Below are positions 1,338-12,858 of a stretch of DNA of 18,432 nucleotides, one piece after another. Numbering within the stretch: position 1 is the stretch's first letter; every line of letters starts with the position of its first letter. The DNA comes from a virus. Where the stretch lies: UHGV virus genome UHGV-1652841; one strand, 5' to 3'. A program made the translations under genes and the position numbers. The notes beneath the pieces were generated by a model. The model did not search any database. It worked only from the letters and a program-made list of their open reading frames with translations, and was not told the origin of the DNA.

Positions 1338-2203
1338 TATACCGCCCTTACAATGTAGTTGAATGCAATGTTGCGCGGACGGGTTTCTGAGCCGCCCACT
1401 TCGACGGTTGGTCGAGTATCGAAATTTACTACTTTCCCGCTTGCATCTGCTGAAACAAGGTCATAGCCCCCAGTAGGATCAAAGGCGCTTAACCCCCATG
1501 TGCGATCAAAGTTATGGCTGTGGGATTTAAACTCATCGTTCTGAGTAGACAGTAAACCGCGGCCATTATCCACACCGCGCCCGTCATCCCAGCCACGAAT
1601 AAACTCACCACGTAAATCAGGCAATTTATTTGTCGGATAAGCCTTTGCTAGTTCCGGATATTCTTCAGCAGAAAAAGCCGCACCATTGCATTTCAACCAG
1701 CCTGTTGGCGGAGTGGCTGAAGGCCACGGAACAGGCACCCCAACAGGTAATGCTGAGCCTTCTCCCAAACCAAGGTATGTGAGAATATCAGCAATAGTAT
1801 TTTTCCCAATAATGTCACGGCCAACAGAAGTTAAATCAGTCTGCGCTGCTGTATCATTTCCAGTGAAATATGGGAGTTTATTTGCACCTGTTGCGAGCCC
1901 AGCTAATGCCGACAGCGTGGCATCAAGCGCCTGGAAATCTTTCCCGAAAGCGGTCCCCATTTTGGATATAAACCCGTTCAGGTCTCCATCATCAAGCACA
2001 TCCAGCCCGCTTTTGTTGGCGGTGTACTGCGCCAACGCTGCCGCGATAAAGCTGGCTTGCCGAATAGCTTTGTTGACCTGTGCGCTGGATGCTTTACCTG
2101 CCGTAAACCCTGAAAGCAGAGCCGGAAGTGCTTCCCAGTCAGCTTGTGAGGTGACGTTAGCGTTCGGATCAAGCGCGAAAGGTTTAAAGTTGTTTATTGC
2201 CAT
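1337..2203 (-). CDS. Tail fibre protein with collar-type domain
   Basis: Contains GWLKCNGAAFSAEEYPELAKAY...LPDLRGEFIRG (tail collar signature) and C-terminus NIAFNYIVRAV. Probable start is the second Met (MAINNF...), coupled to the upstream stop by TAATG; the listed ORF extends to 2221. Confidence 0.8.
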   Translation of the reverse strand: MAINNFKPFALDPNANVTSQADWEALPALLSGFTAGKASSAQVNKAIRQASFIAAALAQYTANKSGLDVLDDGDLNGFISKMGTAFGKDFQALDATLSALAGLATGANKLPYFTGNDTAAQTDLTSVGRDIIGKNTIADILTYLGLGEGSALPVGVPVPWPSATPPTGWLKCNGAAFSAEEYPELAKAYPTNKLPDLRGEFIRGWDDGRGVDNGRGLLSTQNDEFKSHSHNFDRTWGLSAFDPTGGYDLVSADASGKVVNFDTRPTVEVGGSETRPRNIAFNYIVRAV

Positions 2204-2883
2204 TAGAGTATTGTCCCCCATGCTCCAACATCGAACCCGCCGATGTATTCGTTATCCATATCAAACCCAAAGAATTTAGAGCCTTCTGACGGTGTTTCTA
2301 CCGAAGGCGTTTCAACATCACCGGCCCATACGCCAGCTGATTTAACGGTGAGATAGCCCTGTTTGATAGCGGCGATCAGTTCGAGAGACACATCAGAAAT
2401 ATCAGTTTCAGGGAAAACCCAGACCGAAATCGTCATGTCCTGGTTGTCGACGATCTGCATCCTCAGGCCTGAGCCTGCGGTAGCAGCGTCAAGGATGGGA
2501 GGCAGAGAGTCGTTCCGACCGTCCCAGTTGTTGATAGCGATTTTCGCTTTCAGAATGATGCGGTACGTCTCATCGCTTAGCGTCGTATAGCCAGAATCAG
2601 GATCATATGGCCCTTGCCAGATGCCCTGGTCATACCCAAGCCCGTCAGTGTCCAAGCTGAAATAAACTCCGCTAATTGGCTGGCTGACTATGCGACTGCG
2701 TCCGATCCACAGACCGAGGATGTCGAGCTGTACACCGACAGCAGTATCGATATCGAAGGCTGTTATAAGCCCTGACATAGTGCTGGACACATCAATCAGC
2801 GGGCAGGTGCTCAGATCTATATGGTCAAAAAAGAGTGGCTTGGTAGCGTGGTAGTTAGTGATCAGTTCGGTGTATTTGCTCAT
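2203..2883 (-). CDS. Tail/baseplate protein, gpI-like (DUF2612-type), fibre attachment
   Basis: 226 aa; sits between the baseplate J-like gene and the fibre gene, as Mu gp48 / P2 gpI does; overlapping start/stop coupling with neighbours. Confidence 0.55.
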   Translation of the reverse strand: MSKYTELITNYHATKPLFFDHIDLSTCPLIDVSSTMSGLITAFDIDTAVGVQLDILGLWIGRSRIVSQPISGVYFSLDTDGLGYDQGIWQGPYDPDSGYTTLSDETYRIILKAKIAINNWDGRNDSLPPILDAATAGSGLRMQIVDNQDMTISVWVFPETDISDVSLELIAAIKQGYLTVKSAGVWAGDVETPSVETPSEGSKFFGFDMDNEYIGGFDVGAWGTIL

Positions 2884-4079
2884 GAGGTCACCGTGATACT
2901 GATATTCGCGGTGCTACAGGACGCTGAAGCATCATAGGCAATATCAATGTTTGATGCCGATACGCTGCCAGACGACTTACCGATCAGCAGGTCGGTAATA
3001 TCGTAATAGCGGGCATTCCCGCCGCTCACAACGCCGAGGTTTGCCGGGGAATAAATACGGCTCAGCAGAACGTCGTCGCCAATTGTTAGGCCATTTATAT
3101 AATCGGCAACAGCCTGTTTAATCTGCTCGCCGATTTGAGAGGTATAGCCGGTAAAAACTTTCAGGGTAATGGCTACGAAAATTGGCACATCGGTAGAGCG
3201 CGAAAAACTGATGACGTGAGGATTACCATAAGTATCCGGCACTGTGACAGAAGTTTTACCGTAAGTTGCGGTTCCCTGCCCTTTATTCCCCCTGATGGTC
3301 TGGGCTATCTCGGTAACATCCCCTCCATCGACGATGGCGGAAATAGAGTGTGGCGGCAGCCCGTTGCTGTCGGTTGCCCCAGTATCGTTCTTATATAGTT
3401 TGTGACGTGTCACGCCAGCAACATTAGCGATAGCACCGTCGACACCTTCAAACGGTGTGATCGATGGTAGCGCGACGCTTTGCCCCTGCCGAATGCGCAG
3501 CTCTGCGTCGGTTTCGGCTGGTGAACCGACAGTAGCCGCAACTGGATTGGTTACCGACACCCAACCTCGGGTCGGGGTGTTGATAGTGGTAATAGTCCCG
3601 GCCAGCGCCGCAACCGAACCGCTATTCGCACATGTGGCCGTCACCAGCACAGTACCATCAACGCCGATCGCTACACTTGCGGGAAAATTCCAGATAATGC
3701 CGTTTTTATCCCGTGCGGAGCCATTCGTGATAGTCGTGCCTGCCGTACCGGTTAACAGAAGGTCAGCAGTAGAGTTTGTCGCTACTTTTCGCGTGATCCC
3801 GTTAATTTTCACATTGCTGCTAAGCGCTGCGGCCTGCGCTGTCGTCGGTGAAAAAGAGTTGTAGATCCCGATAGCGGTGTTGTTAGCGTCATGCACGGCA
3901 AGAGCCACCAGCGCGACCATCTGCCCGTCTTTGCTGTCTGGTTCGAGGTAGGCATCACTACCGTAAATCTGCCTGAAATAGCTGGTCAGTGTATCTAGGA
4001 TTGTCTGGTAATCAGGCGCACTAATCCCCTGGGCGGTTACCGTTGCCGATAGCCCCAGCGTGTCGAGGTTCAAAGCCAT
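2880..4079 (-). CDS. Baseplate J-like protein (Mu gp47 / P2 gpJ family)
   Basis: 399 aa; order in the tail operon after the W-like gene; N-terminal region resembles baseplate J family; ATGA-type overlaps on both sides. Confidence 0.75.
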   Translation of the reverse strand: MALNLDTLGLSATVTAQGISAPDYQTILDTLTSYFRQIYGSDAYLEPDSKDGQMVALVALAVHDANNTAIGIYNSFSPTTAQAAALSSNVKINGITRKVATNSTADLLLTGTAGTTITNGSARDKNGIIWNFPASVAIGVDGTVLVTATCANSGSVAALAGTITTINTPTRGWVSVTNPVAATVGSPAETDAELRIRQGQSVALPSITPFEGVDGAIANVAGVTRHKLYKNDTGATDSNGLPPHSISAIVDGGDVTEIAQTIRGNKGQGTATYGKTSVTVPDTYGNPHVISFSRSTDVPIFVAITLKVFTGYTSQIGEQIKQAVADYINGLTIGDDVLLSRIYSPANLGVVSGGNARYYDITDLLIGKSSGSVSASNIDIAYDASASCSTANISITVTS

Positions 4080-4433
4080 TTATGCCTCGCTTGTTACAGT
4101 CGTCTGGCCGTAGATTGTGTCAATGGAGGAAGTGAAGGTGACGCGACGGCTGGTGCCGTCATAATTGGTATCGAAGGAAAGAATCGACAGAACGCCCGGT
4201 GTATCCTGTATGCGTTCGCGTATAGCCAGGATGTAGACATCTGATCGCTGCTTCCCAAGCACTGACTGAACATACGGCGTGCCTTCCGTCAGATCGAGAA
4301 ACCACTGACCGCGCCACAGCTCGAAACGGGTTTTTACGGCCTGGGCGACACATTCCGGACTGTCGATAAGGAAAGTATCGTCACCCTGGCCGAAAGTGTA
4401 ATCGCCTTCAGTATCTTCGCGACGGTATCGCAT
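4080..4433 (-). CDS. Baseplate wedge protein, gpW / Mu gp46-like
   Basis: 117 aa ORF between the spike and J genes; size and position match the W-like baseplate component. Confidence 0.55.
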   Translation of the reverse strand: MRYRREDTEGDYTFGQGDDTFLIDSPECVAQAVKTRFELWRGQWFLDLTEGTPYVQSVLGKQRSDVYILAIRERIQDTPGVLSILSFDTNYDGTSRRVTFTSSIDTIYGQTTVTSEA

Positions 4434-5173
4434 TATTGCGGCCCTCCGGTAGTTCCCCCGCCAGTCTGTACTCCGCCATGTTTATGCGTGGCGACACTGA
4501 TACCAGAAGCTGTTACGTCATTCGTTACCGTCACCGGCCCAAGCATCGTCGCAGTACCGCCGCTTTCGCCCATTCCCTGAGACAAGTTGCCATTAATCGT
4601 TACGTTGCCGTTCAGCGTGATAGTCGGGGATGTGATTGTCGTTCCACCTTCAGCCGTAGCTGTAAGCTGGCCCGGTGTTTTAATGGTGATGTTATGTCCT
4701 GCGGCGACTTCTACAAACGCCGCACCATCATCGGTTCGCAGCTGCGCGGCGCTGGTACTGATACCGCTGATTTTCCGTGCTTGCGACTGTGGGCCAACGA
4801 TGGCGAACGCATCAGATAAGTCATGCTGGCGCGGGTCGACGGTCTCCTGCACGCCGCCGCTCTGCCACCAGAAATCGATGCAACGGTCGGCAAAGAGCAG
4901 CAGGCACTCGTCGCCTTCTTTAACCGGAAAAGTCAGCGTACAACCGCCGCCACGCGGGAAGATAACCGGCACATCCACCAGCGGTTTTAATTCGGTGGAG
5001 CCATCGCCAACGATACCGCGAAGCGCTACCTCTACCGTGCAGGTAACAGTGTCAGGATCGAACGACTGAATGATGCCGGGCATCGCTACGCGCATCTGGG
5101 TAGACACCGAATCGGCAATGGCCTGCGCGGTCTGCTGCTCACCGCCGATCTGTGATTGAGTTGGAATTGGCAT
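4433..5173 (-). CDS. Baseplate spike / assembly protein V-like (Mu gp45 family)
   Basis: 246 aa; N-terminal region (GIIQSFDPDTVTCTVEVAL...) followed by a Gly/Thr-rich repetitive C-terminus (TITSPTITLNGNVTINGN...GGGTTGG) typical of gpV/gp5-like spikes; GGGGG Shine-Dalgarno-like stretch 5 nt upstream. Confidence 0.75.
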   Translation of the reverse strand: MPIPTQSQIGGEQQTAQAIADSVSTQMRVAMPGIIQSFDPDTVTCTVEVALRGIVGDGSTELKPLVDVPVIFPRGGGCTLTFPVKEGDECLLLFADRCIDFWWQSGGVQETVDPRQHDLSDAFAIVGPQSQARKISGISTSAAQLRTDDGAAFVEVAAGHNITIKTPGQLTATAEGGTTITSPTITLNGNVTINGNLSQGMGESGGTATMLGPVTVTNDVTASGISVATHKHGGVQTGGGTTGGPQ

Positions 5174-5181
5174 AAAACCCC

Positions 5182-5208
5182 CATAAAAAAACCAGCCGAA
5201 GCTGGTTT
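5182..5208 (-). terminator. Intrinsic terminator-like hairpin on the minus strand, immediately upstream of the spike gene start
   Basis: Perfect 8-bp stem AAACCAGC / GCTGGTTT with 4-nt loop, followed on the minus strand by TTTTTTTAT. Confidence 0.5.
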
Positions 5209-5395
5209 GGTATCAATTATCTCTTAGTAACTAAGCTACATCAGTGTGAAGTAAGGCTTTTCCGCTGCAATGGCACACATTCACAATGTGTATTAGGATA
5301 TGTTTGCAACAAGTAAGCATTGAAAATCAATTTCAGCCATGAAGCCGCCATAGAGTGGACCTGCACCATCGCATTATTGACTACAGGAGTAACAA

Positions 5396-5686
5396 ATGGG
5401 ATTTAGATTTCGTAAAAGAATCCGGATTGCGCCCGGACTCGCGATCAACATTAGTAAAAGCGGAGTAAGCACTTCAATTGGTGGTAAAGGTTCCACCATT
5501 AACATCGGGAAAAAAGGCGTAAAGATGACAAATGGCCTTCCCGGCACGGGGCTGTCGCATACCACTAACCTTTACTCTCCCGGGAAATCGACAGAAAAAA
5601 AACAACTTACTCATAAGCAAAAAATAATTAGAAACATCCTGTTCGTAATTATTGTGTTTATTATAATTAAAGCTCAATATTTTTGA
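5396..5686 (+). CDS. Small tail-anchored membrane protein with DUF4236-like N-terminus
   Basis: 96 aa; N-terminus MGFRFRKRIRIAPGLAINISKSGVSTSIGGKG...GLPGTGLS matches the DUF4236 pattern as I recall it; C-terminal hydrophobic segment ILFVIIVFIII; AGGAG 8 nt upstream of ATG; AT-rich gene on the opposite strand to the tail operon. Confidence 0.6.
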   Translation: MGFRFRKRIRIAPGLAINISKSGVSTSIGGKGSTINIGKKGVKMTNGLPGTGLSHTTNLYSPGKSTEKKQLTHKQKIIRNILFVIIVFIIIKAQYF

Positions 5687-5691
5687 CGCAT

Positions 5692-5722
5692 GCCCGCCTA
5701 TCTGGCGGGCTATTTTACTTTT
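5692..5722 (+). terminator. Intrinsic terminator downstream of the DUF4236 gene
   Basis: Stem GCCCGCC / GGCGGGC with 5-nt loop, followed by TATTTTACTTTT; lies between two convergent genes. Confidence 0.5.
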
Positions 5723-6600
5723 CGGCAGTCGTATGTTGCATACTGGCGCGGCGCGTCTATGCTGGCCTGCAACCACTGTGCGTTGAGAATAGCTTTTCCG
5801 TTGCGCTTGATGTACTCAAGCCCAACCCAGCGGCCGGGTTGATTAGTGGCAGCCATCCACTCCATCTTGATGTTATCCGGTTCCCCTTTGGTGCTACCAC
5901 CAGAGCCGATTGGGCTAATTTTTTGCGTCTCTGGTTTTGCGCCATTAATTCTGGCCCAACCATCAGCAGAAGACAGATCAATCGTATAAGGACCACAGAC
6001 TGTTTTGTAATTCACGCCAAGCTTTTCGTTACTGTGAACATTACTACTTTTCTCGTAATCAGCCTTGGCTACGTCGTTCATTTTTTGATAGATGGCAGGT
6101 TGCTTCAGCGATAACTCATTTAGCTGTTTTACAAAATTTTCTCGTGAAACCTCTGCAAGCCCCATGGGTTTTCTATCAATGATATAATCATCATAAATCT
6201 TTAATACAACAGCCGAAGAAGAAAGTTTCTTAGCTAAATCATTTACAAAATTGAGATAATTTAGCTGAGAATTATCTCTTACATCGATAGCCCTAACTCC
6301 ACCTGTGCCGTACTCATGATATGCAGCATAAAAAGCTGGTATATTCTCCGGCTTTTTATTGATTGCCTTAATCAACCCGTCAGGACCACAGATCTCGCCA
6401 CTCCAGTCAATTAGTGACTTCCCTTTAGATTTCCATGTCTGACAATCATCTGTCGATAAAATTACTATCGGCTGCCATCCTGGACGTCTTTTGTACTCAG
6501 CGTTCTGCGCGGAATTAAAGCCTGCACTCGCGCCCCCGGATAAGAGCAACCCGGAAAGAAAAAGTGCGCTATATCGAATTCCGTTCTTATTTGTACCCAC
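5710..6600 (-). CDS. Secreted/periplasmic protein of unknown function (moron cargo)
   Basis: 296 aa. GTG start immediately after the TAA stop of the hub gene, preceded by AGGAGGAAA. Predicted signal peptide (basic n-region, hydrophobic core YSALFLSGLLLSGG, ASA-GF cleavage-type site). Lys-rich and AT-rich relative to the flanking tail genes. Confidence 0.7.
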   Translation of the reverse strand: MGTNKNGIRYSALFLSGLLLSGGASAGFNSAQNAEYKRRPGWQPIVILSTDDCQTWKSKGKSLIDWSGEICGPDGLIKAINKKPENIPAFYAAYHEYGTGGVRAIDVRDNSQLNYLNFVNDLAKKLSSSAVVLKIYDDYIIDRKPMGLAEVSRENFVKQLNELSLKQPAIYQKMNDVAKADYEKSSNVHSNEKLGVNYKTVCGPYTIDLSSADGWARINGAKPETQKISPIGSGGSTKGEPDNIKMEWMAATNQPGRWVGLEYIKRNGKAILNAQWLQASIDAPRQYATYDCRKVK

Positions 6601-7668
6601 TTAATTTCCTCCTGAGCGAGCTATAGTCGACTGGCTAATCAGGTCACGAGCCCCACGCGCAAAACACATCAAATCCATGTACCACGCCTGACCTCTGGTG
6701 TCACCAGTATAATCGATAGCTTTGACGATATAAACGCCATCTGTCGCAATGCTGGCAGCCTGTGACGTTGTGCCGGTCAGTACGCGGTTGCCGTTCTCTT
6801 CTGTTTCGGTGATGCGACCGGGCGACTGTGCTATTTCGCTATTACCGAGCGCGGCGCGGTACACCGAAGCCTGATCGAGCTGGATAAGACCATTAATACG
6901 GATGTTTGGGTTTATCAGGCACCGCACGTTTACTCCGCCGCCCATCGTTTGTTGCGGCATACCGATCAGGCCAGTATCGGCATTCAACACAATGGCTTCG
7001 TGAATATATTTATCCTCCGGCACCATCTGGACCTGACCATCCACCAGCTGCCATGTCGCTTTGCACTGCGCAGCAATATTATCCATCACGTTACGGGTGG
7101 ATGAATAAATCGCACGGCCACGAGGAAACACGGTATCAGGAAAGTCACCGGTAATGCCCTGCGTCACGCCGAACGCGTTGAAATCCTGCATAGTCGCCCG
7201 GTGCAGGTCCGCAACGGTATAACCAGCGGCAAGCGTGGTGATGGTAGTCGCGTAGAGGAACGCTTCGTGGTTACTGATGGCCTGAATCAGCACCCAGGAA
7301 TCGGTGATGTTGTCCTTCCCGGTGACGGTGAAGCGAATATCACCGTCAAATATCAGGCCGTAGTTCTGACCGTTCACCTGCCCTACCTGGTCTGGTGAAA
7401 TCTCCCGGGCGACACCAACCTGGCTCGCATCAACATCCGGCGCAATACCGTCATACCCGGCAATGATGCGAATTTTTGCAAACTCCTGCCCCAGTATCTT
7501 GTTCGTGGTATCGGTCGAAAGGTTGTAAATTTTCACGTTCGCCACGCGTGGCCAGCGTGTGTCTGCCCACTCGATCTGGAACGTGACCTTAAAGTCAGAC
7601 AGGGAAACGCCCTGCCCGTTCTGGTCCAACAGTTGCAGCTCAAAATGGCGCATCCAGTTAAGAGACAT
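6601..7668 (-). CDS. Baseplate hub / tail protein (Mu gp44 / P2 gpD-like)
   Basis: 355 aa; size and position (after the tape measure and small tail genes, before the spike in the ancestral order) match the hub protein. Confidence 0.6.
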   Translation of the reverse strand: MSLNWMRHFELQLLDQNGQGVSLSDFKVTFQIEWADTRWPRVANVKIYNLSTDTTNKILGQEFAKIRIIAGYDGIAPDVDASQVGVAREISPDQVGQVNGQNYGLIFDGDIRFTVTGKDNITDSWVLIQAISNHEAFLYATTITTLAAGYTVADLHRATMQDFNAFGVTQGITGDFPDTVFPRGRAIYSSTRNVMDNIAAQCKATWQLVDGQVQMVPEDKYIHEAIVLNADTGLIGMPQQTMGGGVNVRCLINPNIRINGLIQLDQASVYRAALGNSEIAQSPGRITETEENGNRVLTGTTSQAASIATDGVYIVKAIDYTGDTRGQAWYMDLMCFARGARDLISQSTIARSGGN

Positions 7669-7670
7669 TT

Positions 7671-7976
7671 CTACTCCTGTACGAAAATGAGGTGGCTGTA
7701 TGTGCCGAGGTTGGTTTTGGTGGGCTCGTCTGGTGCGCCCTTATCGGTCGCCACCACCAGCGCGCCATCAATGCCAAGCTGTGGATATTGTCGTAAAAGG
7801 TTTACGCCGGTCAGTAGAGGTACGCCAGAGAGAAGCGCGGCACCGCCGCTATCCATCACGTCCATAATCCAGCCAGCCGCATCACGTCAGATGATCCTGA
7901 GTGTATACGTGGTATTGCCCAGCAAAACGCGGAACTGCTGATTGTCAGGAGAAAGCGGTATTTCGTTAAACTGCAT
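7671..7976 (-). pseudogene. Small tail gene with an in-frame TGA (codon 30 of 101); nonsense pseudogene or two mini-ORFs
   Basis: One continuous frame from ATG at 7976 (overlaps upstream stop as TGATATG) to the stop at 7671, just before the hub start, interrupted only by TGA at 7887-7889. Conceptual product MQFNEIPLSPDNQQFRVLLGNTTYTLRII*RDAAGWIMDVMDSGG... Confidence 0.4.
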
Positions 7977-7977
7977 A

Positions 7978-8580
7978 TCATCCCCCGAATGCTGATGTAA
8001 CGCTTCCGCCCAGCTGGCTCAGCAAGGATTCGTTTGGCGGTGTAGTGGATTTCATCCCGGAATTCTGCACCGCCGATGTGCTGACGCCATCCTGCATATC
8101 TGATTTATCTGCAACGCTAACGCTCTGCGTCTGCGACATGATCACTTCACGCAGGGTAAGCGTGCAGTTCAGCACGTTCTCGCTGGTTTTATCCGTTGTC
8201 ACCTCGATGGCTCGCACCAGCATATTGCTGTAAACCCGCTTTCCGGTCACTACATCGAACGGCACCCGAGAGGACTGGAGATCCAGTAGTTGCTGATAGG
8301 TCTCTTTCGGGCTAAGTCCGGCGCTGAGGCCGATTGACGATGTATCAATGAAGTCCAGCAACGAACCGCCACCTGCGAAGCCGCATTCCATCGTGACTTC
8401 GCTGGGGCGCTTATACGCATGATCGGCGATGAAACCCGACGCGCTATTCGTTGTTGGCTTCTCCACCGGGTGCTCAGTAATTTCGAGCGCATCAGAATGC
8501 TTTTCGGAAACGACCACGCTGGGGATCAGCAGGCCAATTCGCCGGGATTGCTGGCGAAAAATCGCTGATAAAATATCCAT
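7978..8580 (-). CDS. Tail protein occupying the position of the Mu gp43 (DNA circulation-type) gene
   Basis: 200 aa; start ATG overlaps the tape-measure stop (TAATG). Family assignment is uncertain; the call is mainly positional. Confidence 0.45.
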   Translation of the reverse strand: MDILSAIFRQQSRRIGLLIPSVVVSEKHSDALEITEHPVEKPTTNSASGFIADHAYKRPSEVTMECGFAGGGSLLDFIDTSSIGLSAGLSPKETYQQLLDLQSSRVPFDVVTGKRVYSNMLVRAIEVTTDKTSENVLNCTLTLREVIMSQTQSVSVADKSDMQDGVSTSAVQNSGMKSTTPPNESLLSQLGGSVTSAFGG

Positions 8581-10217
8581 TATCTCGGTCCTGCGGGGAG
8601 TTGCTGGGTTAACTGTGAATTCACGCCCTTTTGACGGTCAACAGTCAAACGGGCAGCCTCGCGCGGATCGGAAACGCCGTGGATGTTAATGTTCGTTTCC
8701 TGCTGAATCACCGGGGCGCTGGTGGGCATATTGCTCATCACTTTCGGAATGTAGTTGCGCGTTTCCTGCGGCATTAGCCCCATTCCATAACGCTTAACAT
8801 TCCCGATCCCCCAGTTATATGATGCCAGTGCTTTGCTAAGGTCTCCGCCGTTCTGCCGCAACAGCTGGCTGAGGTACTTAGCGGCTGCCTGAGCTGACTT
8901 TTCCGGGTCGAATACATCATTCCCACGCAGGCCCATGTCGCGCGCCGTGCCATCCATAAACTGAAACAGTCCTTTCGCGCCTGCGCCGGATATGGCGAAC
9001 TGGTTACCACCCGACTCGGTGATCGCCACGCTTTTCAACAGGCCAGCTGGCAGCTGATAAAGCGACTCCAGTTTATTGAACATTGGCCCCATCCAGTCGA
9101 GCAATACCTTGCCCTGGGCCGTCGCCTGAGGTCGCTTAACCGACTGCGCTCGCTGCTCCGGCTCCAGTCCCATCTCCTGAATTTTTCGCTGGATTTGCTC
9201 ATCAGTGAAAAAGTCTTTGCCGGGATTTTCCTTTCTCAGCGCCTCATATGCCTGCTGCCTTTCAGGTACGATATTGCTGCCTATACCGCCAATCGACGCC
9301 ATTTCTTCACTGGTGGTCGGCGTATTGTTGGCAGGAATGAACATAAGCAACCATGGATTCTTGATTGCCAGCTGTGCGATCCCCTGCGCCAGCTTACCCA
9401 GCCCACCAATAGAGCCGCCAATTGCCTTACCAAGCCCCATAAATCCGGCGACAAGTCGCCCGATGCCAGTGAGCATGGAGACCAGCTTCGCACCAGCCAG
9501 AAAGCCAAACAGGATGGTGAGCGTATTTTTCCAGCCGCCGAGGTTGTCCTTGAGCTCCAGAAACTTATCGCGCAGCCACTTGAACACCTTCTTTGCCTGC
9601 TCAATTTCTGGCTGCCATTTGGACCAGTCAATCAGGCTTTTACCGCCCTCTTTCCACGTCTGGTAATCGTCGTACAGCAATCCGATCGCCAGAATCAGTG
9701 TGGTGATAATTCCAATCGGGGATTTCAGGAACGCAGAATTAAGCAGACGCCATGCGACCAGTAGAGCACCGAATATTTTCAGCAGATTTTTACTGCCATC
9801 GTCAAGACGCTTCCACCAGTCGATGACAGAGCCAGCGCCCTGTATCAGCCGCCACGCCATTCTCGTGAATGCGTTCGCAAGCCAGATCACGCCTTTAATA
9901 ACTCTGGTCAGCGTCTCTTCAATCTTCGGGAAATTGTCGAGGATGCGCCGCCGCAGGCTGTCCAGCGAACCAGCCAGGCCACCAGCGAGGTTTGAGCCGA
10001 TCTTGTCCCGCATGATGCCGAACAGCGACGTAAGCCCGCGCATGGACGTCATGAATTTGTTGGACTGAACAGCCGCTTTATCAGCGTTGAACCCTGTCTT
10101 TTGCAGCATCGACTGGTAATCGGCGGTAAAGCCATTCATGCCGCGCCGCATCGCCATCAGCGTGTTTTCATCGATGCCAAGCATCTGCGCGTATTGTTTC
10201 GCGCGGTAATACGGCAT
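8580..10217 (-). CDS. Tail tape measure protein with C-terminal lytic transglycosylase (SLT) domain
   Basis: 545 aa; central hydrophobic segments; C-terminal SLT-like motif ...VAITESGGNQFAISGAGAKGLFQFMDGTARDMGL...YNWGIGNV; position upstream of baseplate genes. Upstream context is a deletion junction, so the N-terminus may not be native. Confidence 0.75.
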   Translation of the reverse strand: MPYYRAKQYAQMLGIDENTLMAMRRGMNGFTADYQSMLQKTGFNADKAAVQSNKFMTSMRGLTSLFGIMRDKIGSNLAGGLAGSLDSLRRRILDNFPKIEETLTRVIKGVIWLANAFTRMAWRLIQGAGSVIDWWKRLDDGSKNLLKIFGALLVAWRLLNSAFLKSPIGIITTLILAIGLLYDDYQTWKEGGKSLIDWSKWQPEIEQAKKVFKWLRDKFLELKDNLGGWKNTLTILFGFLAGAKLVSMLTGIGRLVAGFMGLGKAIGGSIGGLGKLAQGIAQLAIKNPWLLMFIPANNTPTTSEEMASIGGIGSNIVPERQQAYEALRKENPGKDFFTDEQIQRKIQEMGLEPEQRAQSVKRPQATAQGKVLLDWMGPMFNKLESLYQLPAGLLKSVAITESGGNQFAISGAGAKGLFQFMDGTARDMGLRGNDVFDPEKSAQAAAKYLSQLLRQNGGDLSKALASYNWGIGNVKRYGMGLMPQETRNYIPKVMSNMPTSAPVIQQETNINIHGVSDPREAARLTVDRQKGVNSQLTQQLPAGPR

Positions 10218-10323
10218 GTTGTTGAGCTTTTGCCCAACCCGCCCTGATAGCTGCCTGTGTGGCGTTTAAATCTTTCAGGTACTCACGGGCAAACAGCTCT
10301 TGTTTGTCGGTGAGCTTTGCCAT
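10174..10323 (-). pseudogene. Terminase small subunit, N-terminal stub (about 28 native residues, then out-of-context sequence)
   Basis: MAKLTDKQELFAREYLKDLNATQAAIRAG matches the conserved N-terminus of P27-type terminase small subunits; after AAIRAG the frame reads WAKAQQHAVLPRETIRADAWHR-stop. No terminase large subunit, portal or capsid genes follow. Confidence 0.6.
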
Positions 10324-10675
10324 TGTTGGCTCCGTTTATCCGTTAAAAGGGATATCAGTTAAGTTATCCCGTGCAGGGTATAAGCCATTGTCGAGACCAC
10401 TCATTGAATGGCCTCTGCAATAACCGATGTCTTTCCATCAGCCCGCCACCACAAAGAATCTTTTTTGCCATAAGGCTGGAGGTTCATCTTTCAGTGGCTG
10501 CCAGTGTTATTTCCCCACTTACTGGCTTGGGTTGCTTCGTGGTACTGCCGTAACTGGTGGTGCACAGATTTAGTTAAATCTGTTCTCGCCTGAACTATCT
10601 TTTACATACCCGGATTGTGGGGATGTAAATCACGGTTTCATTATCAAGCCCACCCGTAGATGGGCTTTGTAATGG

Positions 10676-10933
10676 CTACTTCGCTTTTGCTTCCGCTCGC
10701 TTACGCCGGCGCTCTTCTTTCCTCTCGGCTTTTGCCATGTCCATGAATGCCTGCATGATCGAGTTCCGCATCATGTAGCTAACAAAGTGATGATTGACAC
10801 AGCCGTTGAGGCGCAGCTGCTCGCCAAACTCATCCACCGAGGCCAATGCTTCCCTCATGCCCTTCTCGCCTTTCATGAACTCTGAGAAGTCGCGCCCCGC
10901 TCTGGAGGCGCATTCAATGACACGATCACTCAT
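10676..10933 (-). CDS. Hypothetical small phage protein
   Basis: 85 aa ORF with basic C-terminal tail; start overlaps the stop of the upstream KilA-N gene; followed by a 7-bp-stem hairpin (AAGCCCA / TGGGCTT). Confidence 0.45.
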   Translation of the reverse strand: MSDRVIECASRAGRDFSEFMKGEKGMREALASVDEFGEQLRLNGCVNHHFVSYMMRNSIMQAFMDMAKAERKEERRRKRAEAKAK

Positions 10934-11427
10934 CCCGGAAGCCCGGGGATCGTAATCTGCAGCTGGTTAGCCAGGGAGTTAATCTCAGCGACCAACACTG
11001 GCTTCGTATAGCGCCATGCTGCCAGCCCTTGTCCGCAGAAGCTCGCCATGTCTTTCTTCTGGTCAAACTCATGACATTTCATGTTGAGCTGCGCACTTAA
11101 GCTGTTGCGATGCTGAAGTTCTCCGGTGAAGTAGTCATCGAGGACTTTATAGGCCGCGTACTTGAACCCGGGGTTTAACCAAGCCGCATAATCGTAAGCA
11201 ACAAACTTCCCGCCATATGTTCCACCGTGTACACCGCGCTCAGTAAAAACCACAGATTCGTGGTTTTTCTCCAGCTCGGCTAAGAACTCTTTGGTCTGCT
11301 TGTTTCGCAGGTAGTGGTAAGGCGATTCAGATTCACTTTTACCACTAGCTTTCCACATATCAGTGAGGCAGATCATGCCATCTTCACCGATACGAATTGG
11401 TTGATTGAAGAGGGTTAATGATTTCAT
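10930..11427 (-). CDS. KilA-N domain protein
   Basis: 165 aa; N-terminal ...QPIRIGEDGMICLTDMWKASGK...GGTYGGKFVAYDYAAWLNPGFKYAAYKVL fits the KilA-N pattern. Confidence 0.7.
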   Translation of the reverse strand: MKSLTLFNQPIRIGEDGMICLTDMWKASGKSESESPYHYLRNKQTKEFLAELEKNHESVVFTERGVHGGTYGGKFVAYDYAAWLNPGFKYAAYKVLDDYFTGELQHRNSLSAQLNMKCHEFDQKKDMASFCGQGLAAWRYTKPVLVAEINSLANQLQITIPGLPG

Positions 11428-11541
11428 AGCGTGTACCTACTCTTTGAAATGAACCTTTGCCGCACAGGAAACCAGCCCACCGAGGCTCGCCAGCACTAAC
11501 TGGTATCCTCAAAGGCCCATTCCAAAGGGGCAGGTTCGGTG

Positions 11542-11597
11542 TAAAAAACATGCGTTGCGGTACGCATTTATTGCAAAAAGCCCCGCATCGCGAGGCT
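11542..11597 (-). terminator. Two tandem intrinsic terminators downstream of the lysis cassette
   Basis: Minus-strand hairpin GCCTCGC-GAT-GCGGGGC followed by TTTTTG, then hairpin ATGCGT-ACCGCA-ACGCAT followed by GTTTTTTAC. Confidence 0.5.
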
Positions 11598-11628
11598 CAT
11601 TAAATGGACTTTGTGATTTGCAAAAAAA

Positions 11629-12096
11629 TTATTTCAGGCATTGCGTCCTGATGTATTCCTGCAGGTAGTTAACCTGCGCGGTTATCTTGTCGATTCCACT
11701 TCGTAGACGGTAATAATTGAGTTCAGCATCTGCTGTAAGTCTTGGGCTTTCTCCATCGCCCATGCTGCTGGCTCCGGTCGTTGACTTTGCACAGGTGGCG
11801 GCGACTTGCAGGCGCTTACGGCCAGCAATGACATCGCTATGCAGACGCTCAATGGTTTCTTTCGCATCAGCCAGTTCTCCGGTGTATTTGGCATCCAGTG
11901 CAGCGACATCACGCTGGCGGGTCTGCATGTCTTTAATGGTGGCGGTCGCCAGGAGGAGTTTCTCAGTGGCCTTATCGCGCTGGTCTCTGTAAGTGATGGC
12001 GTTGTCGCGGTAGTGGTTCACGAAGAAAGCCAGTGCGCCGATTAACGCCAGCACCAGCAACTGCAGCCAGTAACGCTTAACCAGTGCGCTAATCAT
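11629..12096 (-). CDS. Rz-like i-spanin
   Basis: 155 aa; N-terminal TM segment then ...[14 protein letters not shown]...[22 protein letters not shown], very close to lambda Rz; ends ...YIRTQCLK; ATGA overlap with endolysin. Confidence 0.85.
11682..11867 (-). CDS. Rz1-like o-spanin lipoprotein, embedded in the +1 frame of Rz
   Basis: Embedded ORF; probable start [20 protein letters not shown] (lipobox VSAC) followed by a proline-rich segment [12 protein letters not shown], as in Rz1. Confidence 0.7.
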
Positions 12097-12542
12097 GACA
12101 GGAACAGAGCTCGCTCTGCCTTGCGGCGATTCGTGAGCCCCGGCATCACCTTTCCGCCTGATTTATTCCAGCGCAGAAATTCATCTGCCGCGCCTTTTAT
12201 ATCGCCAGCATTCAGCTTTTTCAGCAGTGTAGATGTGGAAAGAGCACGCGACCCAACGTTGTAAGCGAACGACACCAGTGCGTCGAACTGGCCTTGTGTC
12301 AGCTTCACCCTGACAACTTTCAGCACGTCATTCTCATAACCAACAAGCCCTGTTTTCAGAAGCCTGTCAGCGGTTTGCTGGTCGATAGTCATACCGCGCT
12401 TTACTGGCTTTCCGTCAACCGGATGGGTCCAGCCATAGCCGATGGTCCACGGCGCATCTCCCGTTCCGGGGTCGGGGTAAGCAGTCAGCCGACAACCTTC
12501 AAATTTTTTTATCAGAGCAATTCCGTCAGGACTGGTTTGCAT
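12093..12542 (-). CDS. Endolysin, T4-lysozyme-like (GH24) family
   Basis: Resembles P22 gp19-type lysozyme (…[18 protein letters not shown]...GYG...[11 protein letters not shown]). Likely start is MQTSPDG (12542), overlapping the holin end; the listed ORF extends to 12614. Confidence 0.85.
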
Positions 12543-12858
12543 CGTCAACTCCCGCCTTTTTTGCTGCAAGTTTTTTAATAAGATTGCCGATCGAATCGGT
12601 GCCGATGTATCCAATAAAGACGCTGGCTATGTAGGCGAGGTTGCTGCTCAGGCCGATAAAGTCCAGAAGGTCACGAACGAACCAGGCAATCATCGCGCAC
12701 ATCAGCGCATCAATTAGCGTTTTTGTTACCGCGCCGCCGTTATAGCGACCACGCAGATACGCCATGATAAAAGCCAGCATTGCACCAATACCCTGCTCCT
12801 TGGCGGCAAGTAGCGCAGCGATGAAATCTTGTTTGTATGGCATTTTCATAGGCCTCAC
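12526..12858 (-). CDS. Holin (lambdoid class, dual-start motif)
   Basis: 110 aa; ...[26 protein letters not shown]...[16 protein letters not shown]... closely resembles lambdoid-prophage holins; N-terminus MRPMKM offers alternative starts; GGAGGT SD upstream. Confidence 0.85.

Follow-up and report, generated by a model that had tools for sequence, protein, structure and literature searches.

Gene order between the hub and spike genes

We analysed an 18.4-kb stretch of DNA (the window) from a lambdoid-regulated temperate myovirus whose genes are read on the minus strand, with a focus on the interval at 5174-6600 between the genes for the baseplate hub and the central spike. The hub gene (6601..7668, minus strand, 355 aa; phrog_196 baseplate hub, E 9e-85; 26 bits, slightly under the cut-off, for Pfam E217_GP41) ends with TAA and is followed directly by a gene of 296 codons (5710..6600, minus strand), here named ORF296. 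It starts with GTG at 6600 and encodes a predicted signal peptide, a helical N-terminal domain (N-domain) and a C-terminal beta-barrel (C-domain) of the family phrog_3443. The second gene (5396..5686, plus strand) is convergent to the tail operon and encodes a predicted tail-anchored inner-membrane protein of 96 aa with a DUF4236 domain. The spike gene (4433..5173, minus strand, 246 aa) was recognized by PF18352 (E 2e-41) together with a GpV Apex motif.

We compared this interval among 101 loci containing both hub and spike, which were drawn from complete E. coli genomes, one genome per species, IMG/VR contigs and GenBank phages. All of them showed the same layout of hub, a gene for a predicted exported protein (slot 1), 0-1.8 kb of variable cargo (slot 2), an intrinsic terminator and spike, and in all of them the slot-1 gene was on the hub strand and started no more than a few bases from the hub stop codon. 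The phrog_3443 domain of about 95 residues made up the mature part of the slot-1 product in 96 loci. The remaining five (L014, L055, L065, L076 and L108) encoded a lipoprotein with another C-terminal domain, which contains the sequence ...IDFEHAARLAKMH...APCSG.GDV... In eight loci the slot-1 gene stood alone, with hub-spike gaps of 403-427 nt where measured. The layout was also the same in phages SEN34 and Mulock at 62% hub identity, and phrog_3443 was found at the equivalent place in Omnitron, SEN34, Mulock and Klebsiella prophages. Among the hosts of the slot-1 gene are E. coli, Klebsiella and the plant-associated genera Pantoea and Erwinia, and a prophage of this lineage was present in 53 of 5426 complete E. 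coli genomes. We consider it very probable from these comparisons that the interval 5174-6600 is the local version of an architecture common to SEN34/Brunovirus-like temperate myoviruses of Enterobacterales.

A preliminary description of this DNA, made from the window alone, had assumed that hub and spike genes are normally adjacent and had read the interval as a two-gene island inserted between them. The assumption does not hold for this lineage, in which hub and spike are never adjacent because every one of the 101 loci has a slot-1 gene between them. Rather than an insertion, the 296-aa gene represents a rare long allele of this fixed gene, so that only the DUF4236 gene represents cargo in the strict sense; as swappable cargo, the DUF4236 unit agrees with what had been proposed. 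One of the two genes does have a homologue at this position in related intact phages, and a structural role of its product did not find support. Whatever the mechanism of the encoded proteins, the succession of hub, exported protein, cargo, terminator and spike provides a practical landmark for a cargo hotspot in a widespread prophage lineage of Enterobacterales.

The slot-1 protein

As previously described, ORF296 appears to be translationally coupled to the hub gene: the hub TAA is followed by the GTG at 6600, and a Shine-Dalgarno sequence (AGGAGG) is located 7 nt 5' of this GTG within the last hub codons (hub end ...TCAGGAGGAAATTAA). The signal peptide was assigned by rule, without a signal-peptide predictor, and by alignment of the long-form family. 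It covers residues 1-26 (6523..6600, minus strand; MGTNKNGIRYSALFLSGLLLSGGASA, followed by G) and consists of a basic n-region (MGTNKNGIR), a hydrophobic h-region of 14 residues (YSALFLSGLLLSGG) and a c-region with ASA before the G, which is a plausible signal peptidase I site in the window allele. With these elements, the product of ORF296 is predicted to be Sec-exported and periplasmic. Most long-form clusters for which an N-terminus was available have a lipobox of the form L/V-S/T-G-C. The window has L-S-G-G at this place, with Gly23 (codon 6534..6532) where the consensus [LVI][ASTVI][GAS]C has its Cys. The near-identical alleles of L032-L034 read LLLSGCASAG, and the Gly variant (SGG) is shared by the window, L029-L031 and cluster P0001. 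As the Cys for the lipid anchor was mutated to Gly, the product encoded in the window is probably soluble in the periplasm.

The common short form of the slot-1 protein has 111-125 aa, with a signal peptide that ends in AxA before a D and then the phrog_3443 domain. The long form was represented by 18 clusters with 44-99% identity, and all members examined, including those with 44-53% identity, were encoded between hub and spike. An AlphaFold2 model of ORF296 had a mean predicted local distance difference test score (pLDDT) of 76.7, with residues 1-32 disordered (pLDDT <50), residues 35-185 all-helical (pLDDT 80-97) and residues 199-294 in beta conformation (pLDDT about 80). The alignment showed two invariant Cys pairs, C53/C71 in the N-domain and C202/C292 in the C-domain. 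The latter domain (residues 198-296; 5710..6009, minus strand) is predicted as an eight-stranded avidin-like beta-barrel, with fold similarity to avidin/calycin-like eight-stranded barrels. It aligned with positions 21-114 of the 115 positions of the phrog_3443 profile (E 3.4e-34), as did the short allele of L003 with E 2.5e-45; phrog_3443 is a PHROG of unknown function.

The preliminary description had found no likeness of the 296-aa protein to any characterized protein, and the database searches were in agreement. Pfam, NCBIfam, PADLOC and PDB sequence profile searches gave no named family for ORF296, and PADLOC-DB v2 yielded only a match at chance level to PDC-S15 (E 0.024, 11.7 bits). Foldseek gave no match below E 0.17 in PDB and none below E 0.02 in BFVD; one match with probability 0.98 and E 0.05 was to a protein named 'Lipoprotein' of Serratia phage Scapp. 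In NZ_CP059283.1 (L002) the Prokaryotic Genome Annotation Pipeline calls only the 3' third of a long allele (3204-3491), as a pseudogene annotated 'hypothetical protein, incomplete, missing N-terminus'. We rejected this call for NZ_CP059283, where a full GTG-initiated open reading frame (ORF) of 296 aa with a lipobox is present. Since such annotation yields a pseudogene fragment, the long-form family is invisible in current RefSeq annotation.

In comparisons with finite dS, ratios of non-synonymous to synonymous substitution rates (dN/dS) ranged over 0.05-0.07 in the N-domain and 0.05-0.08 in the barrel, which indicates purifying selection on both domains. Between the window and the L002 or L011 allele dS was about 1.4-1.7 despite 98% identity of the hubs, and so the slot-1 alleles are old and have entered near-identical tail modules by recombination. 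When 54 modules with at least 94% hub identity were grouped at 90%, the hubs fell into one group and the spikes into three (52/1/1), but the barrels into 12. The slot-1 proteins were 62-72% identical where hub and spike were 95-100% identical.

A tape measure motif in the N-domain

The N-domain of ORF296 (residues 27-197; 6010..6522, minus strand) is predicted to be all-helical and contains the invariant Cys53 and Cys71. An exhaustive search of 1.84 billion proteins gave 15 representatives; no relatives outside this small family were detected, and there was no convincing fold match. We judged one of the 15 to be spurious (P0106, a repeat protein of low complexity with 3135 aa). The set also includes lipoproteins of 350-374 aa with yet another C-domain, one of them encoded at L109 6001-7071 on an integrase/primase (DUF927) element beside a TumE-family gene. 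Slot 1 of L014 encodes an ORF296-like N-domain fused to the alternative C-domain that replaces phrog_3443 in five loci.

Within this domain, residues 44-67 (PIVILSTDDCQTWKSKGKSLIDWS; 6400..6471, minus strand) resemble the tape measure protein encoded in the window itself (BLASTP, E 2e-6). The similarity concerns a motif of the tape measure proteins of the lineage that is reproduced in the N-domain, DDYQTWKEGGKSLIDW. The corresponding texts are PIVILST-DDCQTWKSKGKSLIDWS in ORF296 and PIGIITT...DDYQTWKEGGKSLIDWS in the tape measure protein, in which DDYQTWKEGGKSLIDWS (9621..9671, minus strand) is invariant and stands directly after a hydrophobic helix. Ten residues of the motif were invariant across 14 divergent tape measure proteins (D332, Y333, W336, K337, E338, G339, S342, L343, I344 and W346). 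Otherwise 44-66% identical among relatives, these proteins have few invariant clusters in their second half, of which the motif is one. A profile-profile comparison of the N-domain family with the tape measure family (hhalign) gave 92% probability and E 5.6e-7 over 51 columns, and no alignment extended beyond this segment of about 51 columns.

Across loci there was no covariation signal between the N-domain motif and the tape measure motif, because the latter shows almost no variation. The N-domain motif may have originated from a captured gene fragment or by convergent mimicry, and the sequences make these two origins indistinguishable. An SLT domain is part of the tape measure protein, and we also considered the N-domain as a degenerate SLT/lysozyme domain. 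This was rejected, since a lysozyme-like fold with a catalytic Glu was not found; a pairwise match with the SLT region (E 0.003) was weak and unsupported by profile comparison.

Base composition and mosaic structure

The DNA between hub and spike had been described as visibly AT-rich, and windowed base composition bore this out. All 500-nt windows with a guanine-cytosine (GC) content below 0.42 in the whole 18.4 kb started within 5151-6101, with a minimum of 0.386 at 6001. The GC content was 0.441 for ORF296, 0.396 for its N-domain, 0.392 for the DUF4236 gene and 0.405 for the intergenic stretch, compared to 0.537 for the hub and 0.574 for the spike gene. Taken together, the AT-rich parts had a GC content of 0.39-0.40 versus 0.53-0.57 in neighbouring genes and a GC content at third codon positions (GC3) of 0.36-0.39 versus 0.55-0.65. 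The shift in GC3 was evident in the N-domain (codons 27-197, 0.36 versus 0.62 in the hub); the last 99 codons of ORF296 had a GC3 of 0.52. A compositionally foreign character of the region is thus confirmed, but not its description as one stretch. The low-GC DNA forms two blocks, 6522-6010 and 5709-5174, and between them lies the C-domain with a near-normal GC content of 0.503.

Comparison with relatives, which also defined the two slots, located the breakpoints. L003 departed from the window only at 6626-5870 and was 98.4% identical from 5870 on, L032 departed only at 5725-5196, and Omnitron departed at 6653-5191 with flanks of 96.5% identity. These alignments show that both AT-rich blocks were evidently acquired by recombination, with breakpoints at about 6653/6626, 5870/5725 and 5196/5191. 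As the mosaic breakpoints differ between L003, L032 and Omnitron, the two blocks appear to have separate histories.

The DUF4236 cassette and the variable slot

For the convergent gene, the preliminary description of a DUF4236-like tail-anchored protein with its own Shine-Dalgarno sequence and terminator proved accurate. The 96-aa protein matched PF14020 (DUF4236) over residues 3-55 with 73.6 bits (cut-off 27), and an AGGAG is located 6 nt 5' of its ATG. A predicted terminator (5692..5720, plus strand, hairpin 5692-5710; GCCCGCC-loop-GGCGGGC, then TATTTTACTT) follows the gene and overlaps the 3' end of ORF296. In the AlphaFold2 model, six strands form a beta meander (residues 7-60), and a low-complexity linker connects it to a C-terminal helix (residues 73-95, pLDDT 86-94). 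Dozens of proteobacterial homologues of 91-108 aa share this arrangement, and a Vibrio variant has periplasmic SH3 domains added after the helix, which fits a tail anchor with the N-terminus inside for the DUF4236 protein. We found no functional literature on the DUF4236 family; the one paper found to mention DUF4236 is unrelated.

The cassette was present in 25 of the 101 loci, always in reverse orientation and with 96-100% protein identity to the window copy, next to differing slot-1 alleles. It occurred in 19 of the 5426 complete E. coli genomes and only in this prophage context. An AT-rich non-coding part (5209..5395) belongs to the cassette and presumably contains its promoter. This part includes a perfect palindrome (ACACATT-GTG-AATGTGT, 5275-5291) 5' of the DUF4236 gene, which may be an operator. 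With a composition that differs from its neighbours, a predicted terminator of its own and a presence in some relatives but not in others, the cassette has these features of a moron, whereas the slot-1 gene occurs in every relative. The DUF4236 unit is in our assessment a genuine swappable cargo, equipped with a Shine-Dalgarno sequence and a predicted terminator.

In other loci slot 2 held different accessory genes, in line with the idea of a hotspot at this site. At least 25 different contents were found among the 101 loci. Apart from the DUF4236 cassette these were Phd/Doc (5-6 loci), two-gene units ending in a weakly HEPN-like protein (8 loci), signal-peptide proteins (8 and 7 loci) and a 409-aa coiled-coil protein with a T5orf172 domain (1 locus), and 8 loci had an empty slot. 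Rha/ANT-like regulators were also seen among the loci surveyed (e.g. L004 3032-3852, L019, L018, L063 and L074). No PADLOC-DB v2 model was matched by the DUF4236 protein and three other slot-2 proteins, nor any PADLOC model by five slot proteins of relatives that were scanned. The lack of a match to known defence models for most of the cassettes adds to the interest of this hotspot.

Terminators and transcription

A hairpin with T-run directly before the spike gene had been noted previously and taken as the edge of an island. It is present (5179..5208, minus strand, hairpin 5208-5189; AAACCAGC-TTCG-GCTGGTTT and T-run) and is located 12 nt 5' of the start of the spike gene at 5173. Such a hairpin, with a dG of -8 to -14 kcal/mol and followed by at least six T, was found in all 101 loci, also where slot 2 was empty, and the T-run ended 12-20 nt before the spike start codon. 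As it is present where no cargo is, it represents a feature of the lineage and no scar of an island. There were 26 distinct hairpins with compensatory changes, such as CCAGC/GCTGG, CCCGC/GCGGG, GCCGC/GCGGC, CCCAC/GTGGG and CCTCGC/GCGAGG, and the structure is predicted to be a Rho-independent terminator. The number of terminator-like sites in the region was no higher than in shuffled sequences (3 versus 2.0 +/- 1.4), and it is their conservation in related loci that makes the terminators credible.

In lambdoid late operons Q-antiterminated transcription reads through terminators, and the pre-spike terminator lies mid-way in such an operon. An Rfam scan gave sub-threshold matches only. Among them was isrK, an Hfq-binding small RNA of Salmonella prophages, at 5186-5268 on the minus strand (23.4 bits versus a gathering threshold of 50, E 0.023); the match is probably driven by the terminator.

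A consensus scan for promoters gave four sites in the region versus 3.4 +/- 1.7 in shuffled sequences, and none of them was located 5' of the DUF4236 gene on the plus strand. The sole candidate 5' of ORF296 (6734-6706) falls within strongly conserved coding sequence, and an alignment of hub 3' ends showed only codon-level conservation. A promoter-like site on the minus strand at 5648-5677 (TTGAGC-18-AATAAT, 9/12), just past the ORF296 stop codon, points antisense through the DUF4236 gene in the direction of the conserved terminator and could give rise to an antisense RNA.

Surroundings and state of the prophage

Read along the minus strand, the window carries replication genes, Rha/ANT, YbcO, RusA, antiterminator Q (PF06530, E 9e-25), holin, lysozyme and Rz. 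Later follow a tape measure protein with an SLT domain, a Dit-like protein, plug, hub, the interval studied here and spike, and then sheath initiator, baseplate J, wedge, tail fibre and fibre assembly protein. The tail module is of the type of Salmonella phage SEN34 (Brunovirus) and is also shared by Klebsiella phage Mulock and Citrobacter phage Omnitron. SEN34 combines a contractile-tail morphology with lambda-like regulation (PMC5261728). Positions 1604-12668 of the window were 100% identical over 11,065 nt to an IMG/VR contig of 18,814 nt (IMGVR_UViG_3300030379_000026).

The prophage in the window is defective and represents a remnant. In the plug gene (7671-7976, minus strand; Pam3_gp18-like, 101 aa in relatives) the reading frame is interrupted by a stop codon at about 7880-7878 (RII*RDAAG versus RIIWRDAAG). 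This change from Trp to stop was found only in the window and in L029, and the gene was intact in 10 other close relatives. Moreover, the first ~148 codons of the tape measure gene are deleted, and homology to the 693-aa tape measure protein of intact relatives begins only at about codon 142. At the deletion junction (10217-10330, minus strand) an ORF start, MAKLTDKQELFAREYLKDLNATQAAIRAGW, which is presumably the N-terminus of a small terminase subunit, runs into the tape measure gene at about this codon. The apparent '545-aa' ORF at 10217..8580 is therefore a 5'-truncated tape measure gene. The genes for terminase, portal, capsid, sheath, tube and chaperone are missing at the junction and present in relatives such as L031.

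Possible function of the slot-1 protein

The preliminary description had placed both gene products among possible superinfection-exclusion, receptor-modifying or defence functions. Tentatively, and with somewhat less than even confidence, we favour for slot 1 a periplasmic superinfection-exclusion or injection-interference factor that acts on tail-tip machinery of incoming phages. The protein would reside in the periplasm without being part of the virion and would interfere there with the machinery that incoming phages eject. Its N-domain, as a decoy or competitor, might engage the partner that the tape measure loop motif binds, and the beta-barrel might be a binding module. A late Q-antiterminated transcript would pass the conserved terminator, at which a Q-independent slot-1/slot-2 transcript would stop. 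The DUF4236 protein would be an independent moron, probably acting at the membrane. Since its gene is in reverse orientation, late transcription would run antisense to it and might silence it during lytic growth. Such an injection-interference function is consistent with the position of the slot-1 gene next to genes whose products enter the periplasm first, and also with the modular composition, the exchange of alleles and the terminator that closes the unit.

Several points weigh against it. ORF296 showed no homology to a characterized protein, and the fold matches were generic small barrels. Only about 51 columns are involved in the similarity to the tape measure protein, and the motif alone retrieved no tape measure proteins in the exhaustive search and is without database-wide significance. 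An exclusion gene would be expected to be expressed in the lysogen, but the slot-1 gene is always coupled to the hub stop codon and no conserved promoter was seen upstream; slot 1 may be a purely late gene. A gene in every member of the lineage also looks more like a core function than like cargo, and the diversity of barrel alleles would remain unexplained if the target was an invariant tape measure motif. Lastly, the window copy, which has no lipobox Cys and belongs to a defective prophage, may be inactive.

A more far-reaching version appears distinctly unlikely to us, although it would be of wider interest. According to it, slot 1 of SEN34-like myoviruses would encode unrecognized modular periplasmic injection blockers, and the N-domain of the long-allele lipoproteins would present the invariant membrane-proximal loop of the tape measure protein as a decoy and thereby poison the tape measure channel at its assembly or docking. 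Slot 2, with the universal terminator at its border, would be a lineage-specific defence and accessory hotspot. Should the injection interference favoured above hold, this would reveal a Gram-negative counterpart of the exclusion lipoproteins that target tape measure proteins, with a mechanism readable from the copied motif. It would further point to the region that a myovirus tape measure protein functionally exposes at injection, a step that is poorly understood for contractile phages.

The main alternative, a core late function in lytic growth, is unlikely but has to be taken seriously. The slot-1 protein, made late, might keep progeny phages from adsorption to the dying cell or its debris or from ejection into them, or it might condition the envelope for lysis or egress; in neither case would it be a defence expressed by the lysogen. 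T5 Llp reportedly keeps progeny from the dying cell and debris in a similar manner. The presence of the slot-1 gene in all 101 loci with constant coupling to the hub, the failure to detect an independent promoter and the strong purifying selection would all suit such a function. However, the conserved terminator right after slots 1 and 2 suggests a unit that is able to end there, and 12 allele groups among 54 near-identical modules would be unusual for a housekeeping function. Replacement of the whole domain is also tolerated, as the five loci lacking phrog_3443 show. A role in lysis would be accessory, because the lineage has the standard set of holin, lysozyme and Rz.

It is improbable that both genes in the window are merely decaying passengers of a dead prophage and that this copy has no current function. 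The stop codon in the plug gene, the loss of the genes from terminase through tail chaperone together with the first ~148 tape measure codons, and the change of the lipobox Cys to Gly would be expected in this case. Both ORFs are nevertheless intact, and the Gly allele also occurs in L030 and L031, both of which have an intact plug gene and the latter a full-length tape measure protein of 693 aa. Furthermore, the site ASA before G would still allow cleavage by signal peptidase I, and dN/dS between the window and the close allele L032 was 0.05-0.35 across three segments, though based on very few changes.

A host-fitness or virulence factor, such as a Bor/Iss-like envelope lipoprotein with effects on serum resistance, envelope stress or host interaction, is very improbable. 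Small exported or lipidated proteins with diverse alleles, encoded in the late region of a prophage, could well be of this kind. Yet the slot-1 gene is universal whatever the host genus, from Pantoea and Erwinia to E. coli and Klebsiella, its N-domain copies a phage tape measure motif, and no similarity to Bor/Iss or to Pfam families was found.

Even less credence can be given to a baseplate component of the virion or its assembly, i.e. an adaptor between hub and spike or a chaperone whose hydrophobic N-terminus would be no signal peptide. Location in the baseplate gene block and universal presence would agree with it. But the signal peptides, with lipoboxes in the long and AxA sites in the short alleles, and the two invariant Cys pairs fit a periplasmic disulfide-bonded protein. 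Exchange of alleles to 62-72% identity between hubs and spikes that are 95-100% identical, as well as the swapping of entire domains, would likewise be unexpected for a virion part. The SEN34 paper contains no virion proteomics (PMC5261728), and gp43 is unmentioned in the Pa193 paper and therefore not among the baseplate proteins modelled there.

The single 1.4-kb two-gene island of the preliminary description, inserted between otherwise adjacent hub and spike genes with a hairpin at its edge, can practically be set aside: low GC content across 5174-6600, the match of Omnitron to the flanks (96.5%) but not to the middle and the absence of DUF4236 from most relatives would suit it, but none of the 101 loci has adjacent hub and spike genes, ORF296 ends in the lineage-wide phrog_3443 domain, which makes up its C-terminal third and has a near-normal GC content, the AT-rich blocks differ in breakpoints and history (L003 versus L032), and the hairpin is universal and occurs in cargo-free loci as well.

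Comparison with known systems

The lipoprotein Ltp of Streptococcus thermophilus phage TP-J34 is the nearest parallel to the proposed injection interference by the slot-1 protein, and its target is reportedly the tape measure protein of incoming phages. Ltp is a superinfection-exclusion lipoprotein of a family described previously (PMC3952083). Both systems have a prophage-encoded lipoprotein with helical domains, which is located in the periplasm or on the outside of the cytoplasmic membrane, and a proposed interplay with the tape measure protein. For Ltp this interplay is a proposed interaction; for the slot-1 protein the link is a shared motif. Unlike slot 1, which lies in the baseplate block, Ltp is encoded in the lysogeny module, and its phage is a siphovirus of a Gram-positive host. 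The slot-1 protein of the window, in contrast to Ltp, has an added beta-barrel and is an allele without lipid anchor, and no sequence or fold similarity between the two proteins was detected.

The moron gp15 of phage HK97 encodes a superinfection-exclusion protein inside the tail gene cluster, and morons in late operons have been reviewed together with it (PMC3594210). Slot 1 and gp15 are alike as accessory genes within the late tail operons of temperate phages with lambdoid regulation, in having a terminator at their border and in the proposed block of DNA entry at the tape-measure step. However, the product of gp15 resides in the inner membrane, and the gene has a promoter of its own and is missing in close relatives, whereas the slot-1 protein is predicted to be exported and its gene is hub-coupled and found in all relatives.

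The lipoproteins Llp of T5 and Cor of T1, phi80 and N15 block the outer-membrane receptor FhuA. They resemble the slot-1 protein as small exported lipoproteins encoded beside tail-tip or receptor-binding genes, which protect the infected or lysogenic cell and the progeny. Homology of slot 1 to Llp or Cor was not detected, however, and the only hint is the Foldseek match to the Scapp 'Lipoprotein'. Masking of a receptor by the slot-1 protein seems unlikely, since the domain is conserved across phages with different tail fibres. T4 Spackle (Sp) is a periplasmic inhibitor of tail-spike lysozyme and, similarly to the function proposed for slot 1, it has a signal peptide and targets the cell-puncturing apparatus of superinfecting phages from within the periplasm. 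It differs in being a small all-helical protein of a lytic phage that is encoded far from the baseplate genes.

Slot 2 resembles known prophage hotspots in its fixed position between conserved genes, its many cassettes including toxin-antitoxin pairs and the occurrence of the same cassette in different backbones. It differs from them in its SEN34-like lineage and its hub-spike position, and most of its cassettes match no PADLOC model. In the literature we found no description of a hotspot between hub and spike, nor of a fixed slot for an exported protein with shuffling of domains, of an N-domain family with a tape measure motif or of the universal terminator. In kind, however, the elements of the locus have known counterparts in morons, prophage hotspots and exported exclusion proteins.

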